Positions 8,530-34,209 of a stretch of DNA of 64,000 nt are shown here, piece by piece. Both the position numbers and the translations under genes were made by a program. Position 1 is the first letter of the stretch; each line of letters starts with the position of its first letter. The DNA comes from a virus, in the IMG/VR virus record IMGVR_UViG_3300032236_000862, positions 36,329 to 100,328 of that record, one strand, 5' to 3'. The notes beneath the pieces are model-generated. The model searched no databases. It was not told the DNA's origin and was given only the letters and a program-made list of their open reading frames with translations.

Positions 8530-8794
8530 GGTGTAACTCTACCACAGGCCACTGCCTGAAGTTATAGTTTCCTGAGAATTATAAAACCTAGCACCTCTAA
8601 AACGTCTCCCTATGATCATAGGACGCTTGGAATCCCCCGCCAATTTTTTAAAATGTAACATGCGTCACTTCGGCCACTGCCCACCTGTATATAGTCTCAA
8701 CCCTCCGTCTGGTCTGCCAAAAGCACTAGGCGACGAAGTTTAACCATAGGGGTATCCCATAAGGGGCAGAAGGAAAGGAAAGAGACTCTCTCGC

Positions 8795-8840
8795 TCCCTA
8801 GCATCAGGTGGTGTTAGCCGTTCGAATCGGTACTAGGGGC
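8795..8840 (+). ncRNA. tRNA-like element (acceptor stem plus T-arm, no anticodon arm)
   Basis: TCCCTAG/CTAGGGG stem, GCCG-TTCGAAT-CGGT T-arm, CATC-AGGT-GGTG mini-hairpin. Confidence 0.5.
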
Positions 8841-8882
8841 GGAATAAGGGAAGTGTAGTACCTTATCCAGAAAGGTAGACCT

Positions 8883-9389
8883 ATGTCTACAATTCTAGAG
8901 GCGTTTCAGCCTATCGCCAAGATAGCCAACTCGTATGAGGAGACTATCGTGTCAATGTCCGCCAAGGCATTTGCGGATTACCCGCTTGCTAATGTCGGAG
9001 ATGTTGCTGGTCTATTCAAGACCAAGTCAGCCGTTGACCTAGTCTGGGCAGGTTATATCTGCTCTAAGGCTACCAATGCTCAGGGTACACACCTCTCATA
9101 CGCAGAGGTTAAGCCGTATCTTGAGGCGATTCGGCAGTTCCGCTCGCAAATCACCATTCACGATTCAAGCGTGATGATGATTGCTGAACTCATCACTTGG
9201 GATGCCCAAGTGGTTGAGGCAGATGTAGTGCTTGACCGCCAGTTGAGCACTATCAAGAACGCTCTTGTCAAGGCTCTTGACGAGACCGTTACGAAAGACC
9301 CAGCGAAAGTGGCTCAACTCCGCCTTGACATCTTGGAATTGCTTCCAAAGGTGTTCGCTGTTGAGGCTGGCGTTCTTCAGAACGCTTAG
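8883..9389 (+). CDS. Hypothetical protein, first gene of the + strand block
   Basis: 168-aa ORF with AGAAAGGT RBS. Confidence 0.85.
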   Translation: MSTILEAFQPIAKIANSYEETIVSMSAKAFADYPLANVGDVAGLFKTKSAVDLVWAGYICSKATNAQGTHLSYAEVKPYLEAIRQFRSQITIHDSSVMMIAELITWDAQVVEADVVLDRQLSTIKNALVKALDETVTKDPAKVAQLRLDILELLPKVFAVEAGVLQNA

Positions 9390-9400
9390 TCTCTAGGAGA

Positions 9401-9680
9401 GTATGGGGTGTAACGCCCCATACCCTTCCTATGTTCATAGGTAATTGCTATCTATGAGCATAGGTGGGGGAATCAGATGGCTTTATGCCTATAACCTGGT
9501 GACGTATGTCTGCCACACAGTGCTATGGAACGTTAGCACGCCCCAGAGAGAGTCTCTAGTCCTTTATTCAACGAATAGGCCACTGGCCGTATAGCCCTTC
9601 CGCTGTGTAGGCGTAAGACCAGGCTATACGGCTGGTGGCTTGTCTATTATCAGGTAGTTCCAAGAACCAACTATCTACCT
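9401..9680 (+). other. Array of intergenic hairpins
   Basis: Stems at 9401-9423 (10 bp), 9428-9464 (16 bp) and 9578-9640 (19 bp including GU pairs). Confidence 0.7.
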
Positions 9681-9693
9681 GAGGAGGTAAGAA

Positions 9694-9816
9694 ATGGGTG
9701 ATAACTGTTATCACTGTGGTGATGTATGTACCTGTTCGATTCGGGATTGGATGTGTGCTGATTGTCAGCGCAACGCCTTCTCCTGTGAGTGCGGGTCATA
9801 TGAAGATGAAGACTAA
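9694..9816 (+). CDS. Cys-rich micro-protein (40 aa, 8 Cys)
   Basis: GAGGAGG RBS; MGDNCYHCGDVCTCSIRDWMCADCQRNAFSCECGSYEDED. Confidence 0.75.
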   Translation: MGDNCYHCGDVCTCSIRDWMCADCQRNAFSCECGSYEDED

Positions 9817-9836
9817 TGCTCAGAAAGGAGCAAACT

Positions 9837-10058
9837 ATGAAGATGATCTATCTCGCATATATCTATGGCTGGGCTAGTGGAGAGCCATACAACAAGATGC
9901 TTGGCGTTTATAGCACTCGTGAGAAGGCTGAGCGTGCCATTAAGCAGTATCTTGCTAAGTACCCTAAAGACTACGATGGTGAAGCCTTCGAGTCAGATGT
10001 ATTCCCTGAGGTGCTGGACTCTTATACAGCCAAGGTAACAAAGGATATGATGCTATGA
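9837..10058 (+). CDS. Hypothetical protein
   Basis: AGAAAGGAG RBS before ATG 9837; LGVYSTREKAE motif typical of small phage proteins. Confidence 0.75.
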   Translation: MKMIYLAYIYGWASGEPYNKMLGVYSTREKAERAIKQYLAKYPKDYDGEAFESDVFPEVLDSYTAKVTKDMML

Positions 10059-10156
10059 GCCTCCTAGACCCTATGCAATCAGGTCTGCCTATCACTATCT
10101 TGTGGTTGGGTAGTACCTCTTTCTTCCTCTATGCCTGGTTCACAAGGAATAAGTAG
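10055..10156 (+). CDS. Single-TM micro-protein (33 aa)
   Basis: ATGA overlap with the upstream gene; MSLLDPMQSGLPITILWLGSTSFFLYAWFTRNK. Confidence 0.55.
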   Translation: MSLLDPMQSGLPITILWLGSTSFFLYAWFTRNK

Positions 10157-10197
10157 GTTGGGAAGTCCCCGCCGATTTTTTCAGAAAGGATGCACCT

Positions 10198-10398
10198 ATG
10201 GAATGTACTGAGTGCGGTACACCTGTTGACCCTGAGAGATGGGCGATAGGTAAGGACACCTGTCCACCCTGTGGTAGTGCGCAAGCCAACCACCAGATTA
10301 GATCCAATTACAACCTTGTCCTTATGCCTAAGCAAGGCTTTGGCATAGTCACGGCAAATAGCCCTGACTTACTCAATGGAAGGAGTTCCGGACGATGA
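10198..10398 (+). CDS. Small zinc-finger protein (DksA/TraR-finger-like)
   Basis: CTECG..V..ERW....TCPPC; AGAAAGGA RBS. Confidence 0.7.
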   Translation: MECTECGTPVDPERWAIGKDTCPPCGSAQANHQIRSNYNLVLMPKQGFGIVTANSPDLLNGRSSGR

Positions 10399-10613
10399 GC
10401 ACAGAGAACTGGATTGAACCATACGAATGTATGGAGGATTACCAAGGCCACAACTTCATTGAGTTGGATGGCAACACCGGCACTATGTTCTGTACCCGAT
10501 GCCGGATGCGTACCTATGTAGATATCTGTATTGGTATCTGTGGTAAGTCTATTGACCCACGTGATACAGATATTGAGCGTGACACTATCTATGTATGGCA
10601 CACCGCTTGCTAG
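10395..10613 (+). CDS. Cys/His-rich hypothetical protein
   Basis: CTRC, CGIC-like and HTAC motifs; ATGA overlap. Confidence 0.7.
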   Translation: MSTENWIEPYECMEDYQGHNFIELDGNTGTMFCTRCRMRTYVDICIGICGKSIDPRDTDIERDTIYVWHTAC

Positions 10614-10739
10614 TGCTCCCAACATAAACATTCCCCGCCCATTTTTCCAGGCTGTAGTCTTTGAGAGATACACAGGTCGCCACGTGCTGGCGTAAAGGTA
10701 TTCCTGTGTGTCTCTTACCCTCTACAGAAAGGAAATACT

Positions 10740-10853
10740 ATGTTCGGCTGGCTTATCACCTTCCTGCTTGCAGGTTGGCTCGTAATGACCCTTATCAACA
10801 AGCAGTATGAAATTGACCAAGAAGACTACGATTTTAGAGAGGAAGGACGATGA
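10740..10853 (+). CDS. Single-TM micro-protein with acidic tail (37 aa)
   Basis: AGAAAGGA RBS; MFGWLITFLLAGWLVMTLINKQYEIDQEDYDFREEGR. Confidence 0.65.
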   Translation: MFGWLITFLLAGWLVMTLINKQYEIDQEDYDFREEGR

Positions 10854-11164
10854 ATGGTAACAACATCGCAGTACTCACAGAGCGGAACGACCTATCTTGG
10901 CACGATAGGGCTAGTTGCGTGGGAATGGACACGGAGTTATTCTACTTTGAGCCTAAACTCAAAGGGCAAGCGAAGCGAGATAAAGCACGTATCGCTAAGG
11001 CTATCTGCGCAGGTTGTCCGGTCAAACTCCAATGCCTCGTTGACGCTGTCACCAGAGATGATAGACACTCTATTCAGGGAGGTACTACCCCAGAGGAGCG
11101 AGGTTCTCTCCACGAGAGCGTTGCCTGCTGGCCATTAGAAAAGGTGCTAGCGTGTATCAAGTAA
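10850..11164 (+). CDS. whiB: WhiB-family transcription factor
   Basis: W..RASC, AKAICAGCPVKLQC, and IQGGTTPEER (variant of the GIWGG turn). Confidence 0.9.
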   Translation: MNGNNIAVLTERNDLSWHDRASCVGMDTELFYFEPKLKGQAKRDKARIAKAICAGCPVKLQCLVDAVTRDDRHSIQGGTTPEERGSLHESVACWPLEKVLACIK

Positions 11165-11400
11165 TCACACAGACCAGCACATATGAGGTCAACACAAACA
11201 ACCGCACATTCCGCCGTATCCCAGACAAAGGCCCTGGCCTAGTTAGGGATTTAGAGTGGACACCATATATCAGCATTAAGCACCCATTCATTGGCCAACC
11301 TATGACCATAGAGTGGTCACTCAATGGCTCCCGCAAAATTCGTACCACAACACCCGTTGTGGACATAGACCTACTGGAAGGAGGGGACGATGAAGGCTAG
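11152..11400 (+). CDS. Hypothetical protein
   Basis: 82-aa ORF in operon context. Confidence 0.7.
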   Translation: MYQVITQTSTYEVNTNNRTFRRIPDKGPGLVRDLEWTPYISIKHPFIGQPMTIEWSLNGSRKIRTTTPVVDIDLLEGGDDEG

Positions 11401-11533
11401 ACACAAGACTTGGCAGTTTAATAAGTTCTGGATATCTGTTGGTATGAGCAAGCAGTTTGCTATCAGTATCTATATCAACGAGTTATTCGCAGGCATTGAT
11501 ATTGGATGCTTCTACTTCTCCATCGAATACTAA
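11390..11533 (+). CDS. Hypothetical micro-protein (47 aa)
   Basis: GGAGG RBS; MKARHKTWQFNKFWISVG...FYFSIEY. Confidence 0.6.
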   Translation: MKARHKTWQFNKFWISVGMSKQFAISIYINELFAGIDIGCFYFSIEY

Positions 11534-11545
11534 TCTTATGTGAGG

Positions 11546-11589
11546 AGGCGGGGTTGAGCGTGTGAGGGTACGCTCCCCCGCCTGTTTTT
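11546..11589 (+). terminator. Intrinsic terminator
   Basis: AGGCGGGG..GAGCGT/ACGCTC CCCCGCCT stem followed by GTTTTT. Confidence 0.75.
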
Positions 11590-11923
11590 CTGTGTGATGC
11601 GATGCCTCCACAGCACACCCGATGAAAATCTCTGTGCTGTGCTGGCTTCGGATTACATAGGTAATCCAGGGTCATACACATCCGCACAAAAGAAAGAGCG
11701 TGGTAGGCGTTGAGCTAAGGCTCCGAACGAAATAGTTCCGGCTATCTCTAATAGGGCTGAACCCATCGGGCCGATCCCCTTGTCCTCGTAAGACTTCGTG
11801 GGCTTACACGGCATTGTGCTGCTATCGAGTACTGCGGAATAGTATGCAAATGAACTCACAACGCACGGAGAGTATAAACCGTGTATGCACCAACACAAAC
11901 AACTACACAAAGGAGGGCCAGTA

Positions 11924-12337
11924 ATGGCTAGAATCACCAACCTCATCAACAAGGCTGATGCTCTCAAGCAGTTAAACGCTGCACTGAAGAAGGCTAACGC
12001 TGAGTACGATAAGGACTCCAAAGCATATGTGGCCGCTAAAGCCATCTATGACAAAGAGATAGTTGCATACAACAAAGCCGTTGTTGCAGCCGGTATCGCA
12101 TACCTAAAGTCTGTTGATACCAACAAAGCAAATCAATTCAGTGCTAGGTACGGAAGTACCATAACACACGTTGACTTCAACATCAACATTGGATTGAAAG
12201 AACCAAGCCTAGACAAGGCACAGCCGTATAGAAATATGATTGAGCGTATTGAGAAGCAGATTCGTTCTGTTTCAATTATGTCCGGCGAAACCTTCAATGC
12301 CAGCATGTTGCATGACGATTTCTTCAACTGCTTGTAA
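11924..12337 (+). CDS. Hypothetical coiled-coil protein
   Basis: AAGGAGG RBS before ATG 11924 (MARITNL...). Confidence 0.8.
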   Translation: MARITNLINKADALKQLNAALKKANAEYDKDSKAYVAAKAIYDKEIVAYNKAVVAAGIAYLKSVDTNKANQFSARYGSTITHVDFNINIGLKEPSLDKAQPYRNMIERIEKQIRSVSIMSGETFNASMLHDDFFNCL

Positions 12338-12389
12338 TACGGGTAACGCCGGTTGGTTTCTAAAGTTCTTCCTGAGGTAAAAGAACTCC

Positions 12390-12420
12390 TGTCCTAAGCA
12401 TGACAAGGCTAAACTGCTTA
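12390..12420 (+). ncRNA. Small H-type pseudoknot, copy 1
   Basis: TGTC-CTAAGCAT-GACA-AGGCTAAAC-TGCTTA. Confidence 0.6.
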
Positions 12421-12421
12421 C

Positions 12422-12494
12422 GCCCTCATAGTTCAATGGATAGAACATCATCGTCCTAAGGTGAGTGTTGCCAGTTCGATTCTGGCTGAGGGCA
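12422..12494 (+). tRNA. tRNA-Arg(CCU), CCA not encoded
   Basis: Full cloverleaf: GCCCTCA/TGAGGGC acceptor, GTTC/GAAC D-stem, TCATC-GTCCTAA-GGTGA anticodon arm, GCCAG-TTCGATT-CTGGC T-arm. Confidence 0.92.
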
Positions 12495-12541
12495 CGGCAC
12501 GGAGTGCGGGATGACTTGTAGTCAGAAAACCTCCCTCGCCA

Positions 12542-12569
12542 AGAGCTGAGCATCTCTATAAACTGCTCA
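12542..12569 (+). ncRNA. Small H-type pseudoknot, copy 2
   Basis: AGAG-CTGAGCAT-CTCT-ATAAAC-TGCTCA. Confidence 0.6.
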
Positions 12570-12591
12570 TTACTAATAGAAAGGAGGAACT

Positions 12592-13685
12592 ATGGAACCG
12601 GAAGACTTGCACGGTAAGTTTGAGTATTCAGCCACACCAGAGCACAAGACCAACATCTTGCCACTCAGGTGGTTTGCCAATGCTTGCAATCATCTATCAA
12701 GTTTTGCGATAGAGCGAGCATTAGATCATGAAGACTTTGCCCATTACAACGGCACTGAACTATCACGAGCAGGATATAGATGGTGGAAGATTTGGGCCAT
12801 CATCAACATTCCCTACGATAAGTGGGGCACAACCTATCTAGTAGATTGGCATAAATAATGCAACCAACACAAACAACCCTCTCACAGATAAAAGCCGAAG
12901 CCGCAAGCCGAGGCAACGTCGTATTCATTGATGATTCCCTACTTGAATCGGCCAAACGATTAGAATTCATTGTAGATGCAGTTGCCCACAAGGGACTCAC
13001 CTACAAGGAAGCGTCAGCCTTATGGGCTGATGGCATTGACACTCTGCACACAAGTGTAGAGACAATAACAACCTCCGAAAGGGGCCTATAAAATGGCAAA
13101 AGGTAAAGGCGGAGCACCAGCTCCTAAAGCAAACACAGCAGGCGAACGCCAGAATGGCAAAGCCCGCAAGAAAAACCCAGGACCAGCACAGCCAGAGAAG
13201 ACCAACTTCACACACGTGAATGGTCGTTCGGCTGCTAGTCACGCCAAGCGTGAGGCTTGGAAGGCTGCCGGTGGTCGTGCAAACCACGAGTCAATCCCTC
13301 ACTGGAAGACCGGCAAGGTGTACAAGGCACCGGTCTATTCAGTATTTGCTAAGGCACTAGTGTGAGCAAGAAGATAAAGCGCAAGCACGTTGTTGCCACA
13401 CTTGAGCAACAGATACTCGAGGAGCACGATGACCTGCATTGGGATGACCATCAGCATAGTCGTGCATATCACAGCGGGCTTATGGATGGCTTGGGGTTTG
13501 CCCTCAAGTTACTCAAGCCTGATTCAACTGTGCTTCCCCTCACATCCGTGTGGTTCGATGAGGAACCAACACAAACATCCGAGCGCCAGCGTGAACAACT
13601 CATCGAAATTCAGTATGTTGACATGGCCGATCCTATTCCTGTAGCCTGTTATGCAGGGTTGTTTGAAACAGTGGAGGCACCATGA
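12592..13685 (+). CDS. Four small hypothetical genes (12592-12858, 12858-13091, 13093-13365 basic and disordered, 13362-13685)
   Basis: Abutting or overlapping ORFs with RBSs. Confidence 0.75.
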
Positions 13686-14437
13686 GTTATAAGTTACGTT
13701 CATACCAATACTGGTGTGATTACTTAGAGGGCGGGCGTAAGAAATATATACGCCCACTCTATGAGTATGGCATGACCATCGAGAAAGCTAGCAAGTTTCA
13801 GCTTCCCGGTGGTGACCTACACATTAAGGCTAATTGGGCCGGTAATTACCCATTCATCATTGTTCACAGTGATGACTCATTCACCCTACAAGGTGGTGTC
13901 ATTAACAGTTATTGGGGTGGGAGCTGGAACATACTGAAGTCACAGGGTGTTCGCTATCGCATCTGGAAGTACACAGGCGTAAACGTCTTTCAACGTAACT
14001 ATGAAATCAAGGTTATAGATGAAAACGCAGGTCTTACCCCATCCAAGATACAAGGTTGTCGCCAATGTAAGCAAACAGGTAAACAAGACGGTTGGTGTAG
14101 TCCAACTACTTGTTTTGATGGCGACTTCTATGACACACCTAACGGAGATTCTGTGTATGCATGCCCTGAACACCCTGATGCCCAATCACCACATGGATCG
14201 TGGCACAGGTTTCACCTTATAGCGTGCACCCACGGACAAATGAAAGGCCACACACTACCACGAAGCCAAGAGTGTTATTACTGTAAGGGTTCAGGCAAGC
14301 GTGACTATGGCAACAAACCGATTTCTTTACTCTGGGATGGTTCCCCACTTAGGGTAAAGGATAAAAAGATAGTAAAGAAACCACTAACCGAACTAGAAAG
14401 GATACTAGCCAATCATGTCCAATCGAGTAGCGTATGA
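13682..14437 (+). CDS. Hypothetical protein with DnaJ-type CxxCxGxG zinc motifs
   Basis: CRQCKQTG and CYYCKGSG separated by a Cys/His-rich insert. Confidence 0.75.
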   Translation: MSYKLRSYQYWCDYLEGGRKKYIRPLYEYGMTIEKASKFQLPGGDLHIKANWAGNYPFIIVHSDDSFTLQGGVINSYWGGSWNILKSQGVRYRIWKYTGVNVFQRNYEIKVIDENAGLTPSKIQGCRQCKQTGKQDGWCSPTTCFDGDFYDTPNGDSVYACPEHPDAQSPHGSWHRFHLIACTHGQMKGHTLPRSQECYYCKGSGKRDYGNKPISLLWDGSPLRVKDKKIVKKPLTELERILANHVQSSSV

Positions 14438-14879
14438 CATGGCAGAACCAATCAACGGAATGATAAATCACTCTGTTGCTGGGAATATGCTAGACCACGT
14501 AATTGCTCTCAACAGCATGCAGTTACCGGGTAATTTTCTAAATTACACGAGTAACAACAGCAGTTATCGAGATGCAATCCTCAATCGCTTGATTGAATCG
14601 CCTGTGTATGCATTGCAACTAATGCTTGCAGGTGTTAGGTCATCTAAAAACAATACAGACAACCTGCGTATCTTTAGCGAGTATGCAGCCGCTCTGTCCT
14701 ATGTTGCAGGTGATACGGAACTAGCCGGAGAGATTATCCTCCGCAATGATCCATCAACAAATAGTCCTCTGCTCAGGAGCATTGCAGAGTCACTATCAGT
14801 AGGCGTCAGCTCTGACACCTTCAAAGAGTTACTACGTGCTAGCACAACACAGGCAGCCCAACTGCTTGCTAATGCGTAG
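14415..14879 (+). CDS. Helical protein, possibly DUF4192-like
   Basis: YRDAIL...AALSYVAGDTELA pattern. Confidence 0.5.
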   Translation: MSNRVAYDMAEPINGMINHSVAGNMLDHVIALNSMQLPGNFLNYTSNNSSYRDAILNRLIESPVYALQLMLAGVRSSKNNTDNLRIFSEYAAALSYVAGDTELAGEIILRNDPSTNSPLLRSIAESLSVGVSSDTFKELLRASTTQAAQLLANA

Positions 14880-14921
14880 CCAACACAAACAAACCAACAG
14901 CCTGAGAAAGGGAACCGTTCA

Positions 14922-15233
14922 ATGGCAATAGATGGACCAGTTAATCCTTGGTCAGACCAGATGCCCGCCCAAGACTATATAAGTTGTGATAGTTGCGGTC
15001 ATGGTATCGGTAAGACTCAAGCATTCACACAAATCTACAACCTTAGATATCGTGCAAATCAGTATTTCCATGCCGACCATCTGGGTTGTTCTGCAGCTAC
15101 TCAACTCAAGAATAGCCGCCCACGTATAGTGCTCAATCGTTACCGCAAAGGCATCATCAGCGAGCTGATGTATGGCGGAGATGGTGGCGAGGGAGACAGC
15201 TATGCCGATAAGGTTGATGATCTTGTCGAATAA
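14922..15233 (+). CDS. Zinc-finger hypothetical protein
   Basis: CDSC...FH...GC. Confidence 0.7.
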   Translation: MAIDGPVNPWSDQMPAQDYISCDSCGHGIGKTQAFTQIYNLRYRANQYFHADHLGCSAATQLKNSRPRIVLNRYRKGIISELMYGGDGGEGDSYADKVDDLVE

Positions 15234-15427
15234 GTAACACCGTTGTTGGTTGGTCAAGCCTACTTCAAGCATACTTGATCGAACCTAGACCAGAGTAATT
15301 TAAAGGCTCACGCATTAGTAGTACGTGATAACTAATGTATGCGAGATGAGAAGATAATGTGCGGAGGCATCCAGTCCCTGTGAGCATCAGGGGTAGGCCA
15401 ACCAACAACCCTTACTAAGGAGAGCAT

Positions 15428-15667
15428 ATGTGTCACGAATGTGGCGATGAAAACTACGGAGATATGAATCAGATTCCACCTGAAGAGATGGAAGAGTTCA
15501 TTGACTTCGCATGTCTGCAAGTATCTAAAGTAATAGATAAAGCAGAAGATAAAGGATTCCTTTACCAACTCATTACTGAGTGGCCAAGGGAAAGGCAAGC
15601 GGCATTCGCTCTTGCTACGATACTAGAGGAACGATTAAACTCGTCCTGGCAAGAAGAAGGGGAATAA
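15428..15667 (+). CDS. Acidic hypothetical protein
   Basis: AAGGAG RBS; 79-aa ORF. Confidence 0.7.
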   Translation: MCHECGDENYGDMNQIPPEEMEEFIDFACLQVSKVIDKAEDKGFLYQLITEWPRERQAAFALATILEERLNSSWQEEGE

Positions 15668-17056
15668 ATGGACATCTCAATGTTCGTTGAATCGTACGAG
15701 CCTACTATGGGCAACCACCGTCGTCAGATATTGGTGGTTCCATACAAGGACGGCATCAATCTCTACTCTCGTGTGACTGATGGTACTAAGGGCACTCACA
15801 ATAAGTGGGAGCCAACAACCCTAGACACACTAACAAGTGAGGTTAAAGATAACGAGCAAACAACTCGTCGTCCTGTAGGTGTGTACGTAACATCTGCTGA
15901 TGTGCGTGCCATTGATAGCAAGGGCTATTCTCCAGTCCTAACTACCAAGGCAGTAGGCGCACATAACAAGTCCATTGCAGAAGTTAAATCCGATGTGATG
16001 GATATCGTAACAGGCTTCTACTCTCAAATCGAGGTAGGAGATGACCAACTGGAGGAATACGTGATAGATAACCGAGCAACAACTAGCCCGCTAGTCGTTC
16101 CCGTGCCAACACAAACACTCGATGCTCCGGCCCAACAAGCCGCTCCTGCATTCAATGTGTCGTTGGCCACAGTTCCACCATTGCATCTAGCACAACGCTA
16201 TGTGCATCGCAAGGTCTACAACGTTGAAGACTTTGCTATCTTTGATACCGCTCGTGCTGATGGTATCAACGTGCTTATCTACGGCCCAACCGGCCCTGGT
16301 AAGACAACAGCTGTAGAAGCGTGGGCCGCTGATCGTGGCTTGCGTATGGCTACAGTATCTGGCAACGCATCTATGGAGTCACGCCAGTTGTTCGGTGGCT
16401 TCATTCCTGACGGCAATGGTAGTTATGGCTGGATTGACGGTCCAGTAACTGACGTTGTCCGTAACGGTGGTGTTCTACTACTGGACGAGATGAACTTCAT
16501 CAGTCCTAAAATCTACACCACACTCTATCCACTAACCGATGGTCGTCGTACTATCACTCTGCTCGACCATATGGGCGAGACAATCACAGCGCATCCTGAT
16601 CTTACGATCTTTGCGACTATGAATCCTGACTACGTAGGTACAACACCTCTCAACTATGCAATGCGTAACCGCTTTGATATCCAGTTGATGTGGGATTACG
16701 ACGATGCTGTCGAGGAGAAGCTTGTTAGTAGCAAGGCTCTTCGTACACTAGTCAAGTCTCTTCGTACTGAAGCAGCTAAGGGTCAGTACGATACTCCAAT
16801 CTCTACTAACATGCTGATCGAGTTCAGTGACTTTGTAACCAAGCTTGGTTATGACTTCGCAGTTGAGAACTTTATCGCTCACTTCGGCTCTGACGAGCAA
16901 GCGTCTGTACGTCTGGTCTTCCAGACACATCAGTACAACATCCAATCTGACTTCGGTATTGCACCGGAGATCAAGAACGATGAGTCAGAATCAACACAAA
17001 CACAATCTGATCGTTTAAAAGCATGGGTCGCAACAGCCAATTCAATGACGGTCTAA
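15668..17056 (+). CDS. MoxR/CbbQ/CobS-type AAA+ ATPase
   Basis: Walker A GPTGPGKT, WIDGPV, Walker B LLLDEMN, ATMNP, AMRNRF. Confidence 0.92.
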   Translation: MDISMFVESYEPTMGNHRRQILVVPYKDGINLYSRVTDGTKGTHNKWEPTTLDTLTSEVKDNEQTTRRPVGVYVTSADVRAIDSKGYSPVLTTKAVGAHNKSIAEVKSDVMDIVTGFYSQIEVGDDQLEEYVIDNRATTSPLVVPVPTQTLDAPAQQAAPAFNVSLATVPPLHLAQRYVHRKVYNVEDFAIFDTARADGINVLIYGPTGPGKTTAVEAWAADRGLRMATVSGNASMESRQLFGGFIPDGNGSYGWIDGPVTDVVRNGGVLLLDEMNFISPKIYTTLYPLTDGRRTITLLDHMGETITAHPDLTIFATMNPDYVGTTPLNYAMRNRFDIQLMWDYDDAVEEKLVSSKALRTLVKSLRTEAAKGQYDTPISTNMLIEFSDFVTKLGYDFAVENFIAHFGSDEQASVRLVFQTHQYNIQSDFGIAPEIKNDESESTQTQSDRLKAWVATANSMTV

Positions 17057-17067
17057 GGAGGTGGTAA

Positions 17068-18897
17068 ATGTTTGACGACAATCTAAATGAGCGTTATATG
17101 GAACAGCGTGATGAGGAATCTCAATTACGCTCTATCAGATTAAACGCTCTATGCCGTGTCTACGAACAAGCTGACAGGGTTATTACCGGTGATCCGGTTC
17201 TAGTCCACGTGGTGCCTGATGGTCCTGCGCCTGCTTGGTCTGATGGCCAGGCTATCTACATCAACGCTAGTGAGATCGAAGACATTGATCTTGAAGCGTT
17301 ATCTCAGGTCAATGGCCTGAACTTCCACGAGCTAGCTCACCATCTGTATACTCCCCGCAAGGGAACAGTATTCATGAAGGAAGTTATCAATCGTGGACTA
17401 ATGCAAGCGGCCAATATGCTGGAGGACCAGCGTATCGAGACGTTGCTTGTAGCCCGCTATCCATCAGTAGCGCCGTTCTTAACTGCAACGTGCGCTCGTT
17501 ATCTAGGTAGTACCCCTGAGGAAGCGGAAGGTGCTTATATGCTCCTACGTGGTCGCAGGTATCTACCTATTCAGATACGTGAAGCATTCAGGGACTTGTT
17601 CTATGAGCCTAAGCTCATCCCTGTAATTGCTGACATCGTAGACCAGTATAGGTTGCTTGTATTCCCCCGTGATTACGACAAAGCAATCGAACTCATCCAA
17701 CGTTGGAACGATGAGGTAATCGGCCAGTTGCCTAACCCACAGAATCTTCCTAAGGGTATGACCGGCTGTACTGATCGTGATGCCGTAGGTAAAGGTCGTC
17801 CTGAACCTGGCAAAGCCCAGGAGAAAGACGCTGAACGTGCCAAGGGTATGGGTAAGGCGGAATCAACTACGCCCAACACAAACAAACCCACAGCACCTGC
17901 ACCAACAACACAGCAAGAAGCACTTGATATGGCAAATGCTAAGCCAACAAATGGTGAAGCATCGCCCCCATCAATCACTCCTGGTACAGGCCATCATGAA
18001 AGCCTAGGTGGTATCCCAGACAGTGTGCACGACATGCTAACGGATGTTATTGACACCGTTATGTCTAGCAAGGAAGTGCTTCAAGATCTAAAAACCAAGC
18101 AAAAGGTAATTGTAGGTGGTGACGGTAAGCATACCGATACCATCAAGCGTGGTCGTTATGACACAGCGCCTGTTCCATCAGACGCAATGGTTACCTATCG
18201 TAAGTTCGCACGTGAACTAGAACGCTTACGTGATGAATGCGAGCCTGCTTGGCACAAGGAGGAGGCTAGTGGCAAGCTCAATGTCCAGCGTGTTATTCGT
18301 GGATGTGAGATTGATGAAGCCTTTGACCGCTGGGATGAAGGCACGGACGGCACTGATGTGGAGGCTGTGATCCTCGTGGATCGCTCAGGCTCTATGTCCG
18401 GTGGCAATGACCGTGGCGCATCCATTGCGTCTTGGACTATCAAGCGTGCACTAGAAGGCATCGGCGCTCCGGTGACCGTGTACTCGTTTGATGACGAGAC
18501 GGAGTTGGCTTACAATCGAACAGAACTAGCCAACAAGACGCACTACAAGTTCATCTACGGCAGTGGTGGCACAGAGCCTTATAGTGCCTTGCTTGCTGCA
18601 GAGCAAGTTCTTCTATCATCTCGTAAGAAGAACAAGATGTTGTTCATTGTTACTGATGGCGCCTTTGGTGAAAAAAGTGACGAGGTTATCGAACGTATGG
18701 GTAAGCGTGGCATTCTTACCGCTATGTCCTTAATCATGGGCGACAATGACATGAAGTTCTACCAAGAACGATATGGCTACAGTGACGATACGTTTAGACA
18801 CGGTGTAGAAATCTATGCCCGTATCAATACGGCTCGTGACCTGCTGCCATTTGCTAGATCAGTAGTTACCGGAGCAATCAGAAAGCGAGGAAGATAA
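17068..18897 (+). CDS. HExxH metallopeptidase-like plus vWA domain protein (CobT-like AAA partner)
   Basis: FHELAH, NMLEDQRIE, MIDAS DRSGSM, GGT, VTDG. Confidence 0.9.
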   Translation: MFDDNLNERYMEQRDEESQLRSIRLNALCRVYEQADRVITGDPVLVHVVPDGPAPAWSDGQAIYINASEIEDIDLEALSQVNGLNFHELAHHLYTPRKGTVFMKEVINRGLMQAANMLEDQRIETLLVARYPSVAPFLTATCARYLGSTPEEAEGAYMLLRGRRYLPIQIREAFRDLFYEPKLIPVIADIVDQYRLLVFPRDYDKAIELIQRWNDEVIGQLPNPQNLPKGMTGCTDRDAVGKGRPEPGKAQEKDAERAKGMGKAESTTPNTNKPTAPAPTTQQEALDMANAKPTNGEASPPSITPGTGHHESLGGIPDSVHDMLTDVIDTVMSSKEVLQDLKTKQKVIVGGDGKHTDTIKRGRYDTAPVPSDAMVTYRKFARELERLRDECEPAWHKEEASGKLNVQRVIRGCEIDEAFDRWDEGTDGTDVEAVILVDRSGSMSGGNDRGASIASWTIKRALEGIGAPVTVYSFDDETELAYNRTELANKTHYKFIYGSGGTEPYSALLAAEQVLLSSRKKNKMLFIVTDGAFGEKSDEVIERMGKRGILTAMSLIMGDNDMKFYQERYGYSDDTFRHGVEIYARINTARDLLPFARSVVTGAIRKRGR

Positions 18898-19356
18898 TGT
18901 ACACAATCTATGACAGCCTAACGGAGACCTTGATAGAGGTATTCAATGACTATGAATCAGCCCAGATGTTCCTGCTTCATATATCAGATGAAATCAACGA
19001 TGGTGGGGCTAACCTATCTATCGAAGCTATCACTCCAGCACACGAGTGGGCTCAAGATAATGGCATCATGTTGGCATCATTAGCATGACCACTCGTCAAG
19101 AAGATCCGGCAGCATGGCTCAGTGAGATGTTGAGGCAGAGGGAACTTGACCTGCTCAACACAAACAAAGCTATCGTACGCAACCTACTAGTCAAGCATGG
19201 GGCTGAAGATCTTATCCCTATGCTGTTGGAGGACTAATGATCAAATGCAATCTATGTAAGAACGTATTGGGCCAAGACGACTCGTACGTAGTTCACAGTC
19301 AAACAGCAACGTGCTGGGACTGTTACTTCGGAGAAGACACGGGAGAACGATGGTAA
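18897..19356 (+). CDS. Three micro-genes (18897-19088 acidic; 19085-19237; 19237-19356 CxxC..CxxC finger)
   Basis: Coupled TAATG/ATGA overlaps; manual translation. Confidence 0.65.
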
Positions 19357-19802
19357 ATACATTCCTGCCATATGCAGACTTCAAGCAAGTGGCGCAATCC
19401 CTAGACGATAGGAGACTCGGCAAGCAACGTGTAGAGGCGTTGCAGATTCTGAGGGCCAACCTGGGTCTAACTGTGGGATGGCGCAATCATCCGGCTGCTG
19501 TAATGTGGCGGGGGCATGAAGGTCTACTAGCCAAATACACCATAACAATCTGTAATGAGTGGACTAAGCGTGGCTATGTAGACAATACCAAGCAGCAAGT
19601 GATCGAACTAATGAAGCAGTACAACCTAAAGCCAATCAAGAAGCCTTGGTGGCTTGGGGCAAGCACGTTTCATGAGAGTCATCAGTCTAACCTCAAGCGT
19701 AAGCTTCCAGAGCATTACGACTTTGATGTAGCTGACGACATGCCATACCAATGGCCAACCCCTGAAGGTACGTTCCGAACAACTAAAAAGGAGAAAGAAT
19801 GA
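19350..19802 (+). CDS. MSMEG_6728-family / pyrimidine-dimer glycosylase-like protein
   Basis: NTFLPYADF..LDDRRLGKQRVEALQI, GWRNHPAAVMWRG, PWWLG, HESHQSNL. Confidence 0.88.
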   Translation: MVNTFLPYADFKQVAQSLDDRRLGKQRVEALQILRANLGLTVGWRNHPAAVMWRGHEGLLAKYTITICNEWTKRGYVDNTKQQVIELMKQYNLKPIKKPWWLGASTFHESHQSNLKRKLPEHYDFDVADDMPYQWPTPEGTFRTTKKEKE

Positions 19803-20254
19803 TAACTACAACCCGCAAAGAAGCAATCACCTTGATTGAGGAAAGCATCAACAATGTTATTCCCCTGCAAGATGACAGGCTTGAGAAGGTCATTTATGCA
19901 GTTAACAATGACCTCGCAGTCAGGGACTGGGTCTTGGGTATGCCTAATAGGTTTACCCTTGAAGAGTCTATTGACTTTGTACGTTATATGGCCGTGCACA
20001 CCACAGCATTGGATAGTGTGCCGTTCATCACAATCAATGCCGTGTTTGAGTATGAGCGTGGCAATTCAGACAAGGCTCTGTTAATGATTGACTATGTCAA
20101 TGCGGTTAATAATAACTACCCATTGGCTAAGCTAATCACCAGGACTTTTGATGCAGGTTGGGCACCAGAAATGTTTGCTCAAATGCGTCAAGAGCTGGAC
20201 GCCAAAGTAATGGCGGACTGCAATGAAGAACCAATCAGAGAGGAAGACAACTAA
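19799..20254 (+). CDS. DUF4192-like helical protein
   Basis: DLAVRDWVLG...YERGNSDKA...YPLAKLI. Confidence 0.55.
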   Translation: MITTTRKEAITLIEESINNVIPLQDDRLEKVIYAVNNDLAVRDWVLGMPNRFTLEESIDFVRYMAVHTTALDSVPFITINAVFEYERGNSDKALLMIDYVNAVNNNYPLAKLITRTFDAGWAPEMFAQMRQELDAKVMADCNEEPIREEDN

Positions 20255-20563
20255 TGTCAGACAAAATCATATGGCAAGCAGCAATAACAGCAGATATGGT
20301 AGAAGACTGGACGGAAGATGAGATTGAAATGCTCATAGCTGACCTAGATGACGCAGTTAAATCAACCTATGAAGATTGGGAGCTACGTGACTAAATACAG
20401 AGTAACTATCCATGAGCACATTATCAGTGATCTTTGGGTGGAAGCAGACAACCAAAGTGATGCCAGAGACATAGCCGAGGAGCACATCAGCGAAGGCTTC
20501 AACGGATGGGTTGTGGATGAGATGGCCGGTTGGATCGAGACCGGTGACATCGAGGAGGTTTGA
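20254..20563 (+). CDS. Two acidic micro-genes (20254-20394; 20387-20563, DpnD/PcfM-like)
   Basis: Manual translation; KYRVTIHE....VEADNQSDARDIA. Confidence 0.6.
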
Positions 20564-20588
20564 CCAACACAAACAACCGAGTTATACT
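20560..20588 (+). promoter_or_regulatory. Sigma70/SigA-type promoter containing the 11-bp repeat
   Basis: TTGACC-17 nt-TATACT; CAACACAAACA occupies 20565-20575. Confidence 0.8.
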
Positions 20589-20607
20589 ATATACAGAAGG
20601 GAAGTAA

Positions 20608-20835
20608 ATGAGCGATGACAGTGACCTATATGACCTGCGCCTTACCTTTAGGGTTAAACTAAAGAAATGGCGTGTAGACGACCAGCATGATCGTAACAAT
20701 CAAGAGTGGTCTCTAAGATTCTGGGATAGAAACCTAGAGGAGTGGAAGATCGCTAACGAGTCGGATCTAAATAGGCCAGGTGAGCAGGGCTATATCGAAA
20801 GCATACAAATCATTACTAATAAAAAGGGAGGGTGA
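20608..20835 (+). CDS. Hypothetical protein
   Basis: 75-aa ORF directly downstream of the promoter. Confidence 0.7.
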   Translation: MSDDSDLYDLRLTFRVKLKKWRVDDQHDRNNQEWSLRFWDRNLEEWKIANESDLNRPGEQGYIESIQIITNKKGG

Positions 20836-20842
20836 GCATGTA

Positions 20843-21079
20843 ATGCAATTTGCACAGTTTACAATCAAAACCAAGGAGATAAAGAAACTGGTAGACGCCT
20901 TAGAGACAGCCGGATTAGAGGTCAGCATGACCAACGGCAAACACCATGTAAAGGTAGTCAATCCAGGGACTAAGAAAGTAGTCTTCTTTGGACCGCAATC
21001 TCTGGGCGACCCCAGAGCTGGTAAGAACATACTAAGGGACCTGAAGAAGGTCGGATTCAATCAACAAATAAAACTATAA
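20843..21079 (+). CDS. HicA-like protein
   Basis: KEIKKLVDALETAG..V..TNGKHHVKV...GDPRAGKNILRDLKKVG. Confidence 0.7.
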   Translation: MQFAQFTIKTKEIKKLVDALETAGLEVSMTNGKHHVKVVNPGTKKVVFFGPQSLGDPRAGKNILRDLKKVGFNQQIKL

Positions 21080-21089
21080 GGAGGGCCTC

Positions 21090-21698
21090 ATGGCCAAGGT
21101 AACTAAAACACTAAAGGCAACACTAACCAAGAACTTGTCAGTAGAAAAGGGTGGAGCATGGCTTCTCACCATCACTGAGAGTCATCTATCTGATAGGCCT
21201 ACACATTCTGCATGGGCCAACCCATCTGCTGCAAAGCGTTTCTTGAAGCAGTGGGTTATTGAGAACACACCACGCAAGTCAATCAAGATGGTAGTTGGGG
21301 CCACAAATGACCTAGGTAAGCCAACCCATCTATCAGGTGAGCTAACATGGAAGGCTGATGCATGATGGACATGGAGACTGTACTACCCCGTACCTGCAAT
21401 ATGTGTCATGGTACGGGGGTCGTTTACTGGGAATCAGATGACGACTTTGATGTAGAACAATGCGAGTGCCAATACAAAGGAGAAACAAGTGCCTAAGTTC
21501 CGTGTACAGTTTGATACAACCCGCCAAGGTACATTTATCTTTGATGCTGAAGATAAGGACCACGCAATAGAAATATATACCGGCCTAGTCGAGGGTACGA
21601 CATACCCCGATGAAATTGATGGCTATGAGGATACAGAGGTATCAGACAGCACATACTATGAGCTAACCGATAACTCAGGTAAGCACATAGCTGACTAA
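21090..21698 (+). CDS. Three small genes (21090-21365; 21362-21496 CxxCxGxG; 21489-21698 DpnD/PcfM-like, acidic)
   Basis: Coupled ORFs with RBSs. Confidence 0.7.
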
Positions 21699-21707
21699 TA
21701 GATAACC

Positions 21708-21743
21708 AAAAAGCCCCCGGCTCTTAATTGAGTCGGGGGCTTT
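21708..21743. terminator. Likely bidirectional terminator at the convergence point
   Basis: A5-GCCCCCGGCTC/GAGTCGGGGGC-TTT. Confidence 0.85.
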
Positions 21744-21767
21744 ATGTTTGTGTTGGCCTTTTTTGGC

Positions 21768-21902
21768 CTACTCGATAGGGTCAGTAATGTCGTTTTCTAA
21801 TTCGTCAAGGTCATCCTCATCGAAGTCGAAGTCATCAAAACCATCTTCGAAGTCATCTTCGAAGTCTTCGTCGTATAGGTCTGGGTTAATCTCGTCTGAC
21901 AT
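21768..21902 (-). CDS. Extremely acidic micro-protein (44 aa, 24 D/E, no K/R)
   Basis: AAGGAG RBS; MSDEINPDLYDEDFEDDFEDGFDDFDFDEDDLDELENDITDPIE. Confidence 0.75.
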   Translation of the reverse strand: MSDEINPDLYDEDFEDDFEDGFDDFDFDEDDLDELENDITDPIE

Positions 21903-21910
21903 GTTTCTCC

Positions 21911-23941
21911 TTAGGCGTTATCTTTGATTAGTTTTACTTCACACGCATCTGTAGTGCAATAGGCCTCACCGATTGCATCAAATGCCATGCCTGCATACAC
22001 ACCGCTCAAATCAATTGGGAAGTGGGTCATGCGGGCTTCTTCGTACTCTTCAGCATTACTCTGAGTGTAAGGCATCTGAGGATATAGCGTATCATCCATG
22101 GCTAGGAAGGATACGGTCTTTAGTTGACCATCATACATATGCAATACGGTTCCGATTGCATCAGACTCGGTCTTTGGGTCAAACGATACGGTAACAGAAA
22201 CAGAGTTATCTGACCAGTACCTCTGAGCAGTGGCAGCGATTGCCATCTTCTCATAGATAGAGACTTCCTTCTCAGAACGCATAGCATCTGACTTCACTGG
22301 GAAGTATACAACAGATGTTCCGTCCGGATCTGAAGCTGACGGCTCAACCTTGTAGTTAGCCATCTTGAACAATGGGAGCATAGGGTCGCTATTAGAGAAC
22401 CTAATTGTGCGCATAAAGAACTTACCGCCTGGAGTCCAGTGAACTCCTGGGGATTCTCCCGCTAGGATTGAGACTGTGCCGGATGGCTTTACTGTGGTCA
22501 TCTTGATTGACTCACGGATACCAAGCCATTCGGAGTAACTCTTATCATAGCCTTGGATGACTGCATAGCCGTCGTCCATCCAGGTACGAAGCAAGGGAAG
22601 ACCCTTCGTATCTGCAAAGTTTGCGATACCGGAGATTGAAGTACCGATGCGGCGGTTGCGCTGCATGATGGCGTTTGTCTCTTCCCAGTGGGTAGGGATG
22701 AGAGTTACAGTCTTGGCATAGAGATAGGCGAACTTGAGCGTGCGCTTAAAATCTTCCAGGCTGTCGTGGCGCCCAATGTAGGTCTCTACCAATGTACAGC
22801 ACTCCATTGATTCCAATGATTGTTCAGCACATGGGTTGTACCCGGCCGCTCTCCAGTCCTTGTTGTTGATCGGATCAGCTAGACGCCCGTACTTACGGGT
22901 GGTGTCCATCCAGATCACGCCAGGCTCACCATTGCGGGCAATACCCTCAATGATCTTTGATAGGTCTTGGCCAACCTCTACCTCAACGGAGTTGTTGGAC
23001 ATCCAGCCCCAACCAGGATTGGCAGGATCATAGGAGTTACGCTCTGGGAACATCTCGGCGTTCTTAAGATTAATAAACTCTTCGTCATCCAAACGGCCAA
23101 TTAGGAGCTCGGCTGAGCGACGGACGTTACCGGAGACTACACACACGCCGATTAGGTTACCGATGTCTGCGATGTCACGGCGAGTCAGCTTTTGGCCAGC
23201 TCTGTTATCAAAGATCTTAGCTAGTTGGTCGTGGAGTTTGATGAGCGGATCGGGTCCAGCCGCAGTACCTCCGAAGGTCTTGATTGGAGTTCCGTATGGT
23301 CGGATTGCCGAGTAGTCAAATGTAGGCTTCTTCGTATCTGGCTTAAGGTAGCTATTGATGACGGCAGCCGTAGATTCGTACCAGCCTTCTCTGGTGTCGG
23401 GGATGACATAGGTGTCTCCTTCTGTAGGTGCATAGATAGTGAAGTCCTTGTCTGCACCCTTGTCATCGAATCCTACGCCTACGCCCAGCATTGATGCCTC
23501 CATCAAGAAAGAGAAAGGCTTAGCCGGATCGTTCTTAGTCATAGCATTTGTAGATACAAAGCTGCAGTTCTGCAACGCTGCAGAGTTTTTCTGTTCATTA
23601 ACCTGAGGAGTTCCCATCATCCATAGGCCTCGGCCAGGTGGGGTCCACTTCAGGTTAAATAGTCGGTCGAAAGCTTCTTTGGCTGAAGTAGCAGCCTTGA
23701 TATCAGACCAAGGCAGGCGGTTCTGCTTGGCATGGTCTTTTTGGAGAGAGTACATGCCGTTGATGACACGCTCACATACATCTGTCCAAGTCTCTTTGGT
23801 ACCGTCCTCTTTAAGACGAGAGTAGGTACGCAAGAAAGTAATTTCCCCAAGAGAGTTGCCAGCAGCATCCTGATAACCCCACGGGACCTTCTTTGACCGG
23901 TACGGAGTTACAAAATCATCTGCGAGTTTAAACGAAAACAC
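21911..23941 (-). CDS. nrdJ: Class II (B12-dependent) ribonucleotide reductase, monomeric RTPR type
   Basis: PPGRGLW, LQNC, GNVRRSAE, NPCAEQSL, TVKPSGTVS, C-terminal YCTTDAC. Confidence 0.95.
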   Translation of the reverse strand: MFSFKLADDFVTPYRSKKVPWGYQDAAGNSLGEITFLRTYSRLKEDGTKETWTDVCERVINGMYSLQKDHAKQNRLPWSDIKAATSAKEAFDRLFNLKWTPPGRGLWMMGTPQVNEQKNSAALQNCSFVSTNAMTKNDPAKPFSFLMEASMLGVGVGFDDKGADKDFTIYAPTEGDTYVIPDTREGWYESTAAVINSYLKPDTKKPTFDYSAIRPYGTPIKTFGGTAAGPDPLIKLHDQLAKIFDNRAGQKLTRRDIADIGNLIGVCVVSGNVRRSAELLIGRLDDEEFINLKNAEMFPERNSYDPANPGWGWMSNNSVEVEVGQDLSKIIEGIARNGEPGVIWMDTTRKYGRLADPINNKDWRAAGYNPCAEQSLESMECCTLVETYIGRHDSLEDFKRTLKFAYLYAKTVTLIPTHWEETNAIMQRNRRIGTSISGIANFADTKGLPLLRTWMDDGYAVIQGYDKSYSEWLGIRESIKMTTVKPSGTVSILAGESPGVHWTPGGKFFMRTIRFSNSDPMLPLFKMANYKVEPSASDPDGTSVVYFPVKSDAMRSEKEVSIYEKMAIAATAQRYWSDNSVSVTVSFDPKTESDAIGTVLHMYDGQLKTVSFLAMDDTLYPQMPYTQSNAEEYEEARMTHFPIDLSGVYAGMAFDAIGEAYCTTDACEVKLIKDNA

Positions 23942-34132: not shown

Positions 34133-34209
34133 TAGGGATCTCCTATAATAGAAACGGTGTAATGCACATATTGTGCACTACACCGGTCTATTTGTGTTGC
34201 TAAACGTAA

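Follow-up and report, generated by a model that had tools for sequence, protein, structure and literature searches.

A repeated word in the sole plus-strand gene block of a lake phage

The window analysed here (64,000 nucleotides (nt), positions 36329–100328 of the 100,328-bp IMG/VR virus record IMGVR_UViG_3300032236_000862; coordinates are window positions unless marked 'genome') contains the sole plus-strand gene block of an uncultured ~100-kb lake phage of actinobacteria, and this block is punctuated by an oriented word of 11 bases, CAACACAAACA. The record, whose termini repeat over 123 bp, is transcribed nearly entirely from the minus strand according to a crude map of open reading frames (ORFs). 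Minus-strand genes encode structural proteins (terminase, portal, capsid, contractile tail and baseplate), an endolysin, proteins of replication and DNA metabolism (DnaB, a DnaG-type primase, an SNF2 helicase, a family A DNA polymerase, RecA and a Cas4-type exonuclease), a DpdA-like protein and a class II ribonucleotide reductase (RNR); the phage also encodes an HNH protein. In the plus-strand block (Table 1), a WhiB, a tRNA-Arg(CCU), a CobS/MoxR-like AAA_5 ATPase (hereafter CobS), a VWA (CobT-like) protein and a DenV-type glycosylase could be assigned, a gene content from which we infer the label 'early-type'. A consensus scan detected no intrinsic terminator inside the block, which looks like one long operon devoid of internal intrinsic terminators, and returned weaker divergent promoter matches at ~8.6 kb. 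An Rfam scan of positions 8000–22500 recovered the tRNA-Arg only, with no cis-regulatory match reaching the gathering score of any family.

A pattern search of the window revealed ten exact plus-strand copies of the word between 11190 and 20565, together with a one-mismatch plus-strand copy at 10620 and an exact minus-strand copy at 21745, all of them where a preliminary description of this DNA had reported them; a one-mismatch minus-strand copy also lies at 34189. In its extended form the word reads YCAACACAAACA, mostly followed by A (12–13 bases). Exact copies in the whole record number 10 forward and 2 reverse; the second reverse one is located at genome 27212 (−), outside the window. CAACACAAACA is the commonest 11-mer of the 100,328-bp genome. 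Dinucleotide shuffles of the window gave an expectation of 1.6 matches at one mismatch or fewer, with 13 reached in 0 of 100 shuffles, while the 330 words of equal composition (7 A plus 4 C) occur on average 0.10 times in the block and 0.05 times on the sense strand of the remaining 87 kb. These values place the array far above chance, in agreement with the preliminary description. That description saw no exact copy elsewhere in the window; the word is concentrated in the block but not strictly limited to it, given the stray copies of relatives described below.

Composed of A and C only, the word can be read as the tandem hexamers CCAACA and CAAACA; as it lacks T and G, it holds no stop codon in any of the six frames, and its complement is GT-rich. 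A full-text literature search with the word and its complement returned unrelated primers and probes only, and no nucleotide match to the phage was present among 50,697 deposited phage records. Identical, oriented, recurring about once per kb and present even within genes, the word is a selected control signal.

Conservation of the word among related phages

Relatives were recovered by searches with the CobS-like protein and the DNA polymerase; all are uncultured lake-metagenome phages, and identities across this clade amount to 68–100% for CobS and 67–99% for the DNA polymerase. At least 17 related IMG/VR phages (CobS 68–83% identical, DNA polymerase down to 67%) carry the exact word, with 3–10 sense copies each in the same block. 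Every locus covering the block has the exact word in 4–10 sense copies, except for the one distant outlier, L023, which has none. In relatives' contigs considered whole (48–104 kb), the copies again fall into this block, one inverted copy follows ~1.2 kb past the last forward one, and 0–3 strays are found elsewhere. The most distant complete genome, G006, harbors only three forward copies plus the inverted one (with a copy in the first third of a CobS-sized ORF), so that a tiling of ~1 kb is typical, not obligatory.

A logo built from 96 distinct copies is conserved only from position −1 (C in 85, T in 11 and a purine in none) to +11 (mostly A), giving the consensus Y-CAACACAAACA-A. A weak T-G-A signal at −5 to −3 is due to stop codons, and the logo contains neither a −10 or −35 partner nor any conserved flank within ±60 nt of the word. 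The blocks of 16 genomes together hold ~110 exact sense copies vs. 8 with one mismatch, and none in antisense. Of these eight variants, five are altered in the final base, and the other three, all interior, are transitions.

Stray copies outside the block of relatives are in sense orientation in nine of ten cases and exceed composition-based chance ~25-fold, e.g. an exact copy in the 5′ untranslated region (UTR) of a tail-sheath-like gene (L128; G004:C1:13666) and the one-mismatch copy CAACACAAACT between a terminator hairpin and the ribosome-binding site of a structural gene following the capsid gene (L131; G008:C1:74261). This sense orientation ties the word to the direction of transcription. 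The 34189 copy of the window, CAACACAAATA, is a possible out-of-block member as well.

Judged by CobS, the closest phages that bear a name are those of Gordonia, Brevibacterium and Microbacterium (28–47% identity); in one of them, Gordonia phage DalanDe, no comparable repeated oriented word was found around the CobS/CobT genes. An RNR-based search did not identify the host. In a sampling of 401 Actinomycetia genomes that may omit the true host, the 12-mer occurred in 33, mostly as one copy, and was not over-represented (the tally includes one copy each in the unpublished genomes G019 and G275, and the conclusion is independent of both). A host genome-wide signal was hence rejected as an explanation, none being found in these 401 genomes. 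In three small Actinomycetia genomes, the 12-mer has a conserved context that is most likely an opposite-strand coding region. An unrelated 5.4-Mb actinobacterial genome holds seven same-strand 12-mers within long repeats ~4.6 kb apart (G234:C1:2854728-2899637), with identical flanks in five of the seven; these repeats are probably modules of a giant synthase gene, and their copies are a coincidence unrelated to the phage signal.

Selection on nucleotides and on spacing

The preliminary description had named conservation in the orthologous genes of related phages as a test beforehand, and codon alignments of the CobS and VWA genes (13 orthologs) reveal it clearly. In CobS, no stretch of invariant nucleotides is longer than the 12-base CCAACACAAACA, in an alignment with only 44% invariant columns. 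This run lies exactly in the indel-rich linker that joins an N-terminal extension to the AAA (ATPase) domain. This extension (~150 amino acids (aa) of the CobS-like ATPase at 15668–17056, +) is itself missing in the homologs of Gordonia and Brevibacterium phages, whose matches begin from residues 138–167. The VWA copy falls into a hypervariable low-complexity linker that can no longer be aligned. Its reading is xNTNK in most orthologs and PTQT in L016; the VWA genes of L013 and L014 carry the variant CAACACAAACC. Across copies, all three sense frames are used (PTQT, xNTNx and QHKQ), so the two frames noted previously were correct, if understated. With the word invariant inside variable linkers and its frame differing among orthologs, selection acts on the nucleotides, as had been proposed from the window alone.

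Sites turn over between lineages: in place of the window's copies at the 3′ end of CobS and in a small ORF, other lineages have one directly past the VWA stop codon, and spacing is retained despite this turnover. In five of six genomes the intervals are far more even than random (coefficient of variation (CV) 0.20–0.28, P from 5e-5 to 1.3e-3), and the sixth has a CV of 0.48 (P = 0.02). In L014, which has a one-mismatch variant in its VWA gene, the largest gap measures 2.8 kb; in the other five genomes it is 1.3–1.8 kb.

Promoter, terminator and gene-border contexts

Intergenic copies mostly start 1–2 nt past the upstream stop codon and end 10–35 nt ahead of the next start, some of them directly abutting a ribosome-binding site. 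From copies within genes, the distance to the next start codon is ~90–1040 nt. The position of the leader copy at 11891 is kept in relatives, several of which have a hairpin directly after the word.

The last forward copy (20565) occupies the spacer of a predicted, conserved promoter, an operator-like position. The order of −35 element, word and −10 element is retained in 11 of the 11 other relatives in which the end of the block was scanned, and G006 instead has the word immediately next to a TTGACA −35 hexamer. A second promoter-like sequence at 13618, downstream of the 13567 copy, retains its TAnnnT frame in relatives while the inner bases vary, a pattern that suggests a real internal promoter.

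At the opposite border, the inverted copy starts 1 nt past the scanned stem end of the convergent terminator hairpin (3 nt past its G+C-rich stem core), in keeping with the earlier observation that it lies just past this terminator. It is present there in 15 of 16 relatives for which the block end is covered, and missing in L022. On the plus strand, its complement TGTTTGTGTTGG corresponds to the U/G tract following the terminator hairpin; on the minus strand, the copy belongs to the 3′ UTR with which the opposing operon ends, past its last gene and just ahead of the hairpin. Forward array and inverted copy thus face each other across 1.2 kb with the convergent terminator.

Table 1. Copies of the word and features associated with them in the window (HTH, helix–turn–helix; pI, isoelectric point).
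Feature	Position	Strand	Context
Sole plus-strand gene block of the genome	8883..21698	+	~29 mostly small ORFs
One-mismatch copy CAACATAAACA (C6>T)	10620..10630	+	Intergenic, 6 nt past a stop codon; same variant in L021 and G010
Exact copy	11190..11200	+	26 nt past the WhiB stop codon, or in the 5′ part of a possible 82-aa ORF
Exact copy	11891..11901	+	5′ leader, ~42 nt ahead of an ATG with AAGGAGG ribosome-binding site
Exact copy	12865..12875	+	Junction of ORFs 12592-12858 and 12858-13091
Exact copy	13567..13577	+	3′ part of ORF 13362-13685; kept in relatives
Exact copy	14881..14891	+	1 nt past a stop codon, 30 nt ahead of the next ATG
Exact copy	16107..16117	+	Within the CobS-like gene, indel-rich linker preceding the AAA domain
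Exact copy	16992..17002	+	Close to the 3′ end of the CobS-like gene; lineage-specific
Exact copy	17874..17884	+	Within the VWA gene, hypervariable linker
Exact copy	19156..19166	+	Within small ORF 19085-19237
Exact copy	20565..20575	+	1 nt past a stop codon; in the spacer of the predicted promoter 20560-20588
Exact inverted copy	21745..21755	−	By the convergent terminator
One-mismatch sense copy CAACACAAATA	34189..34199	−	Directly past a stop codon; followed by hairpin, ribosome-binding site and ATG
Best sigma-70/sigma-A-type promoter match of the block, TTGACC-17-TATACT	20560..20588	+	Consensus scan
Promoter-like TTGAC-N-TAnnnT	13618..13646	+	In ORF 13362-13685, starting 51 nt downstream of the 13567 copy; conserved
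Strong bidirectional intrinsic terminator hairpin	21710..21743		Convergence of the plus-strand block and the minus-strand operon
Candidate DNA reader, 155 aa	43663..44130	−	Weak MerR/excisionase-type HTH match in Pfam, E = 0.004
Candidate reader or effector, 78 aa, basic (pI 10.1)	20843..21079	+	HicA/dsRBD-like predicted fold, conserved GKHH motif
Candidate reader, 90 aa, very basic (pI 10.7), low-complexity	13093..13365	+	56–80% identical across relatives
Candidate reader, SpoVS (Alba-related) protein		−	Family scan

Comparison with known systems

Several known elements share traits with the word. Like ops with RfaH and BoxA/nut with NusB–NusE/NusA, it is short, sharply conserved and oriented in a long operon. 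Conserved host machinery recognises those elements, either in the nascent RNA or on the non-template strand, and rrn operons repeat BoxA in leader and spacer. They occur in one or two copies per operon, whereas ten are present here, with another consensus (no G/U) and one copy directly ahead of a terminator; moreover, neither NusG/KOW nor N or Q families were found in scans of the phage ORFs, although a host factor is possible. With Chi, KOPS and DNA uptake sequences the word has in common its exactness, even spacing, tolerance within genes and scarcity of near-misses. Such words fill host chromosomes, whereas the present one is concentrated in one phage operon and absent or single-copy in most of the 401 Actinomycetia genomes. 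A forward array facing one inverted copy is reminiscent of the Tus–Ter/RTP fork trap, but the extremes of GC skew lie away from the block. Cluster K mycobacteriophages carry start-associated sequences (SAS), an oriented 13-base word ahead of many genes that has no known reader. SAS are located 3–8 bp ahead of starts and include the ribosome-binding site; in contrast, the word described here lies 10–35 nt or farther away, has no Shine–Dalgarno-like core and occurs in mid-gene as well. The PeSL cassettes of T4-type phages consist of a promoter and a stem-loop and mark recombination breakpoints. They, too, are oriented, repeated early-region elements, but the copies reported here have no conserved flanks and no clear enrichment of breakpoints.

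The closest known counterpart is provided by the stoperators of cluster A mycobacteriophages (L5 gp71 and relatives). These asymmetric sites of 13 bp point along transcription; most of them block elongation, and a few are promoter operators (PMC6550527). Both are asymmetric 12–13-bp words present in many near-identical copies along transcription, both have one copy within a promoter (here a predicted one) and most outside, and both are proposed to control elongation along a long operon in a polar manner. Stoperators belong to temperate phages with an identified repressor, whereas no repressor or lysogeny gene was found here; they are distributed genome-wide and mainly intergenic, whereas the present copies are concentrated in one 13-kb block, half of them within genes and at regular spacing. 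In addition, a stoperator word co-varies with its repressor, in contrast to the word studied here, which stays the same in all relatives, even in those with as little as 67% DNA polymerase identity. The L5 analogy drawn in the preliminary description stands as the closest one known, with one copy in a predicted promoter, but lacks the repressor and the lineage specificity of the word. We class the array as stoperator-like, without the family-defining repressor, temperate lifestyle or lineage-specific word.

A tentative model of operator and roadblocks

Likewise, the block-wide control system proposed previously holds as an oriented, block-concentrated signal at the nucleotide level. As to its mechanism, we tentatively lean towards an array of docking sites for one factor that would control transcription through the block by means of one operator plus polar roadblocks. 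In such a scheme, the asymmetric 12–13-base word YCAACACAAACA(A) would serve as cis-acting docking site for a single sequence-specific factor, either phage-encoded (e.g. the conserved MerR/Xis-type HTH protein) or supplied by the host, which would bind the DNA of the plus-strand block. The site in the sigma-A-type promoter spacer would act as an operator, and the other sites, all oriented along transcription and at most ~1.8 kb apart, as polar roadblocks. These might stop RNA polymerase anywhere in the 13-kb terminator-free operon, leading to shut-off or silencing of the early-type block, and the single inverted site would guard the end of the opposing operon. What the sequences show is that the sites exist, share an orientation, recur at regular intervals and are conserved as nucleotides, with one tied to a predicted promoter and one to the terminator. 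For the model to apply, they would have to be read as double-stranded DNA, binding would have to block elongation, and the block would have to be early. A DNA array is favored by the conserved copy in the predicted promoter and the one beside the terminator, by how long and asymmetric the word is, by the lack of any sign that RNA flanks keep it unpaired, and by the likeness to cluster A stoperators.

Several observations weigh against this model. The first promoter region of the block (8530–8882) has no copy of the word, and about half of the copies lie within genes. In line with the statement of the preliminary description that neither an integrase nor an L5-type repressor is visible, integrase, ParAB (partition) and repressor families were not recognised in Pfam and PHROG scans of ~130 ORFs (for the 93 smaller ORFs, among the 25 families listed). 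With its contractile tail and its own replication genes, the phage looks lytic. The word is identical in lineages whose proteins are 30–35% different, whereas stoperator words co-vary with repressors between lineages (PMC6550527). Finally, the tandem A/C hexamers, the pyrimidine at −1 and the transition-only interior variants fit recognition of a single strand or base pairing at least as well.

Oriented regulatory words in phages are known mainly from temperate mycobacteriophages, in which a repressor silences the prophage; here, the same outward pattern marks phages of uncultured lake actinobacteria that form a large and apparently lytic lineage. It is unusual that even long genes have to accommodate the word in their coding sequence, with gaps of at most ~1.8 kb in most genomes measured, that the word consists of A and C only and so fits any reading frame, and that it remained letter-perfect while the surrounding proteins diverged by a third. 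The array thereby lends itself to testing as a clear-cut example of an operon whose spacing rule is under selection. Were its reader found, lytic phages would gain a new family of elongation blockers, or else Actinobacteria a new host-dependent signal for processivity or RNA tagging.

Alternative readings

The main rival of the DNA array, possible if on balance rather unlikely, is that a conserved host or phage factor reads the word co-transcriptionally as a sense-strand signal, either in the nascent RNA or on the exposed non-template strand. This reader would travel with RNA polymerase or act on the transcript, the ~1-kb recurrence providing sites for reloading or tagging, and its job could be ops/BoxA-like Rho resistance along the 13-kb operon or the fate of mRNA segments (protection or timed cleavage, e.g. 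by the HicA-fold protein). Such a role would be consistent with the strictly sense orientation, which out-of-block copies share, and with the even spacing and the sites in linkers of long genes, as expected for a signal of limited reach. An A/C-only tandem hexamer has no stop codon and little folding capacity, while the rarity of near-misses, the invariance across diverged phages, the −1 pyrimidine and the transitions would suit a conserved machine or base pairing. Intergenic copies are found in leaders 10–35 nt ahead of start codons, and strays of relatives in the 5′ UTRs of the tail-sheath gene and another structural gene. With no internal terminators and no phage polymerase, it would fall to the host polymerase to traverse 13 kb; the block encodes a conserved basic protein with the HicA fold, an RNA-binding fold; and no repressor or lysogeny gene is recognisable. 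However, the predicted mean probability of the word being unpaired in RNA is 0.24 vs. 0.25 with shuffled flanks (70 sites), and the idea that flanks keep it single-stranded was consequently abandoned. Antitermination would be ill served by a copy placed right ahead of the opposing operon's terminator, the copy within the predicted promoter is located upstream of the start that this promoter would use, and scans recovered neither a NusG paralog nor an N/Q-like protein. If the intragenic copies were cleaved, the CobS and VWA messages would be destroyed. The word also lacks U, whereas BoxA and NusA-bound spacers need U-containing cores, NusA-bound RNAs requiring AUU/AUA (PMC2724277); a NusA/BoxC lead was dropped on the same ground. 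Classing the array as a periodic, gene-embedded elongation or RNA-fate signal, ops/BoxA-like but of unrelated consensus and read by a conserved factor that recognises single strands, appears doubtful to us. If true, a word placed in leaders and protein linkers, and so met by the host polymerase or the transcript at least every 1.8 kb, would allow a 13-kb foreign operon to be fully transcribed or selectively cleared in a streamlined freshwater actinobacterium.

We consider it improbable that the word is a DNA-metabolism signal read by a DNA-tracking or DNA-cutting enzyme, be it for strand-specific nicks (as in T5, phiKMV and tf), as a Chi-like signal for a recombination nuclease, for priming or as a polar fork barrier; in the last version, forward and inverted copies would trap forks at the convergence and keep replication co-directional with transcription. 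The restriction-like exactness (~110 exact copies vs. 8 near-misses), the strand-specific and even distribution tolerated within genes, the forward array opposing an inverted copy across 1.2 kb with the convergent terminator, the GT-rich complement and the presence of RecA, a Cas4-type exonuclease, a DnaB/DnaG pair and an HNH protein would all be in keeping with such an enzyme. Yet the orientation of strays tracks local gene direction, not a genome-wide strand, the 12-mer is no Chi-, KOPS- or uptake-type word in the 401 Actinomycetia genomes, where it is not over-represented, and confinement to a single block is not to be expected of nicks or priming sites. One inverted vs. ten forward sites is the wrong asymmetry for a fork trap with a nearby origin; the cumulative GC skew, with its minimum at ~87 kb and its maximum at ~31 kb (genome), has its extremes away from the block borders and does not place a replication terminus at the convergence point, lending a fork trap no support. 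Highly unlikely, in our view, is a recombination linker at gene borders that shuffles early-gene cassettes between co-infecting relatives, as proposed for T4-type PeSL. Many copies do lie at gene junctions, and gene content upstream of CobS varies among relatives, but only 43 of 803 homology-segment ends fall within 25 nt of the word vs. 30 in a random control, so that breakpoints are not clearly enriched and the candidate was set aside; 11–13 bp are very short for homologous exchange, and the intragenic CobS and VWA copies, the terminator copy and the even spacing would be left unexplained. In lytic phages, oriented identical words ahead of early genes are usually promoters. That each copy is the promoter or start site of one unit in a phage-specific transcription system nonetheless seems scarcely credible: many copies do lie 10–45 nt ahead of start codons, but others are in mid-gene of long genes and some only 10–12 nt from the ATG, the logo has neither conserved flanks within ±60 nt nor a −10/−35 partner, no phage RNA polymerase was detected (no Pfam match among the large ORFs, no DxDxD in ORFs >450 aa), and family scans of the ORFs recovered no sigma factor. 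A phage-polymerase promoter was rejected on these grounds. A DNA-entry signal, which the preliminary description had also considered, received no support.

Candidate readers

For the favored array of operator and roadblocks, a DNA reader might be the HTH protein encoded at 43663–44130, which is present in 13 of 13 relatives tested (62–85% identity). With 62–85% identity across relatives, the 78-aa protein is among the best-conserved small proteins of the block, and it appears to be transcribed from the word-bearing predicted promoter. Its Pfam match to HicA is below threshold (E = 3.7e-4). The structure model (predicted local distance difference test (pLDDT) score 76) has an alpha-beta-beta-beta-alpha arrangement plus a short extra helix before the last helix, and its best Foldseek match, HicA3, is weak (probability 0.82, E = 0.12); a profile of the protein gave no match among PDB sequences. 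There is no obvious HicB partner, the next ORF (21090–21365) being basic and without family match. HicA specificity was also tried as a link to the word; it is poorly defined in E. coli and gives none. The 90-aa protein may be a non-specific nucleic-acid binder, judging from its composition. SpoVS is related to Alba in the parts of the literature consulted (PMC2732212, PMC11621453).

Further features of the phage

The divergent promoter region between the strand blocks (8547–8681) contains a perfect 12-bp palindrome, CTATGATCATAG, at 8610, which recurs twice (genome 32194 and window 47513) and is flanked at 8610 by two direct copies of GGCCACTGCC 125 bp apart. It looks like a classic dimeric operator, distinct from the A/C word.

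A 251-aa protein encoded within the block (13682–14437, +) has two DnaJ-type CxxCxGxG zinc-finger motifs and further Cys/His clusters; it has no family match and is 42–58% identical across relatives. Upstream of the terminase gene, an ORF of 1142 aa (L025:16284-19712 (−), i.e. genome 36284–39712) matched nothing in Pfam, PHROGs, PDB sequences or the ESM Atlas, and was for this reason not retained as a hidden polymerase. The 489-aa protein encoded beside the class II RNR gene (23982–25451, −) resembles phage queuine tRNA-ribosyltransferase/DpdA-like proteins (phrog_887, E = 8e-56), and this neighborhood suggests a 7-deazaguanine modification of the phage DNA.

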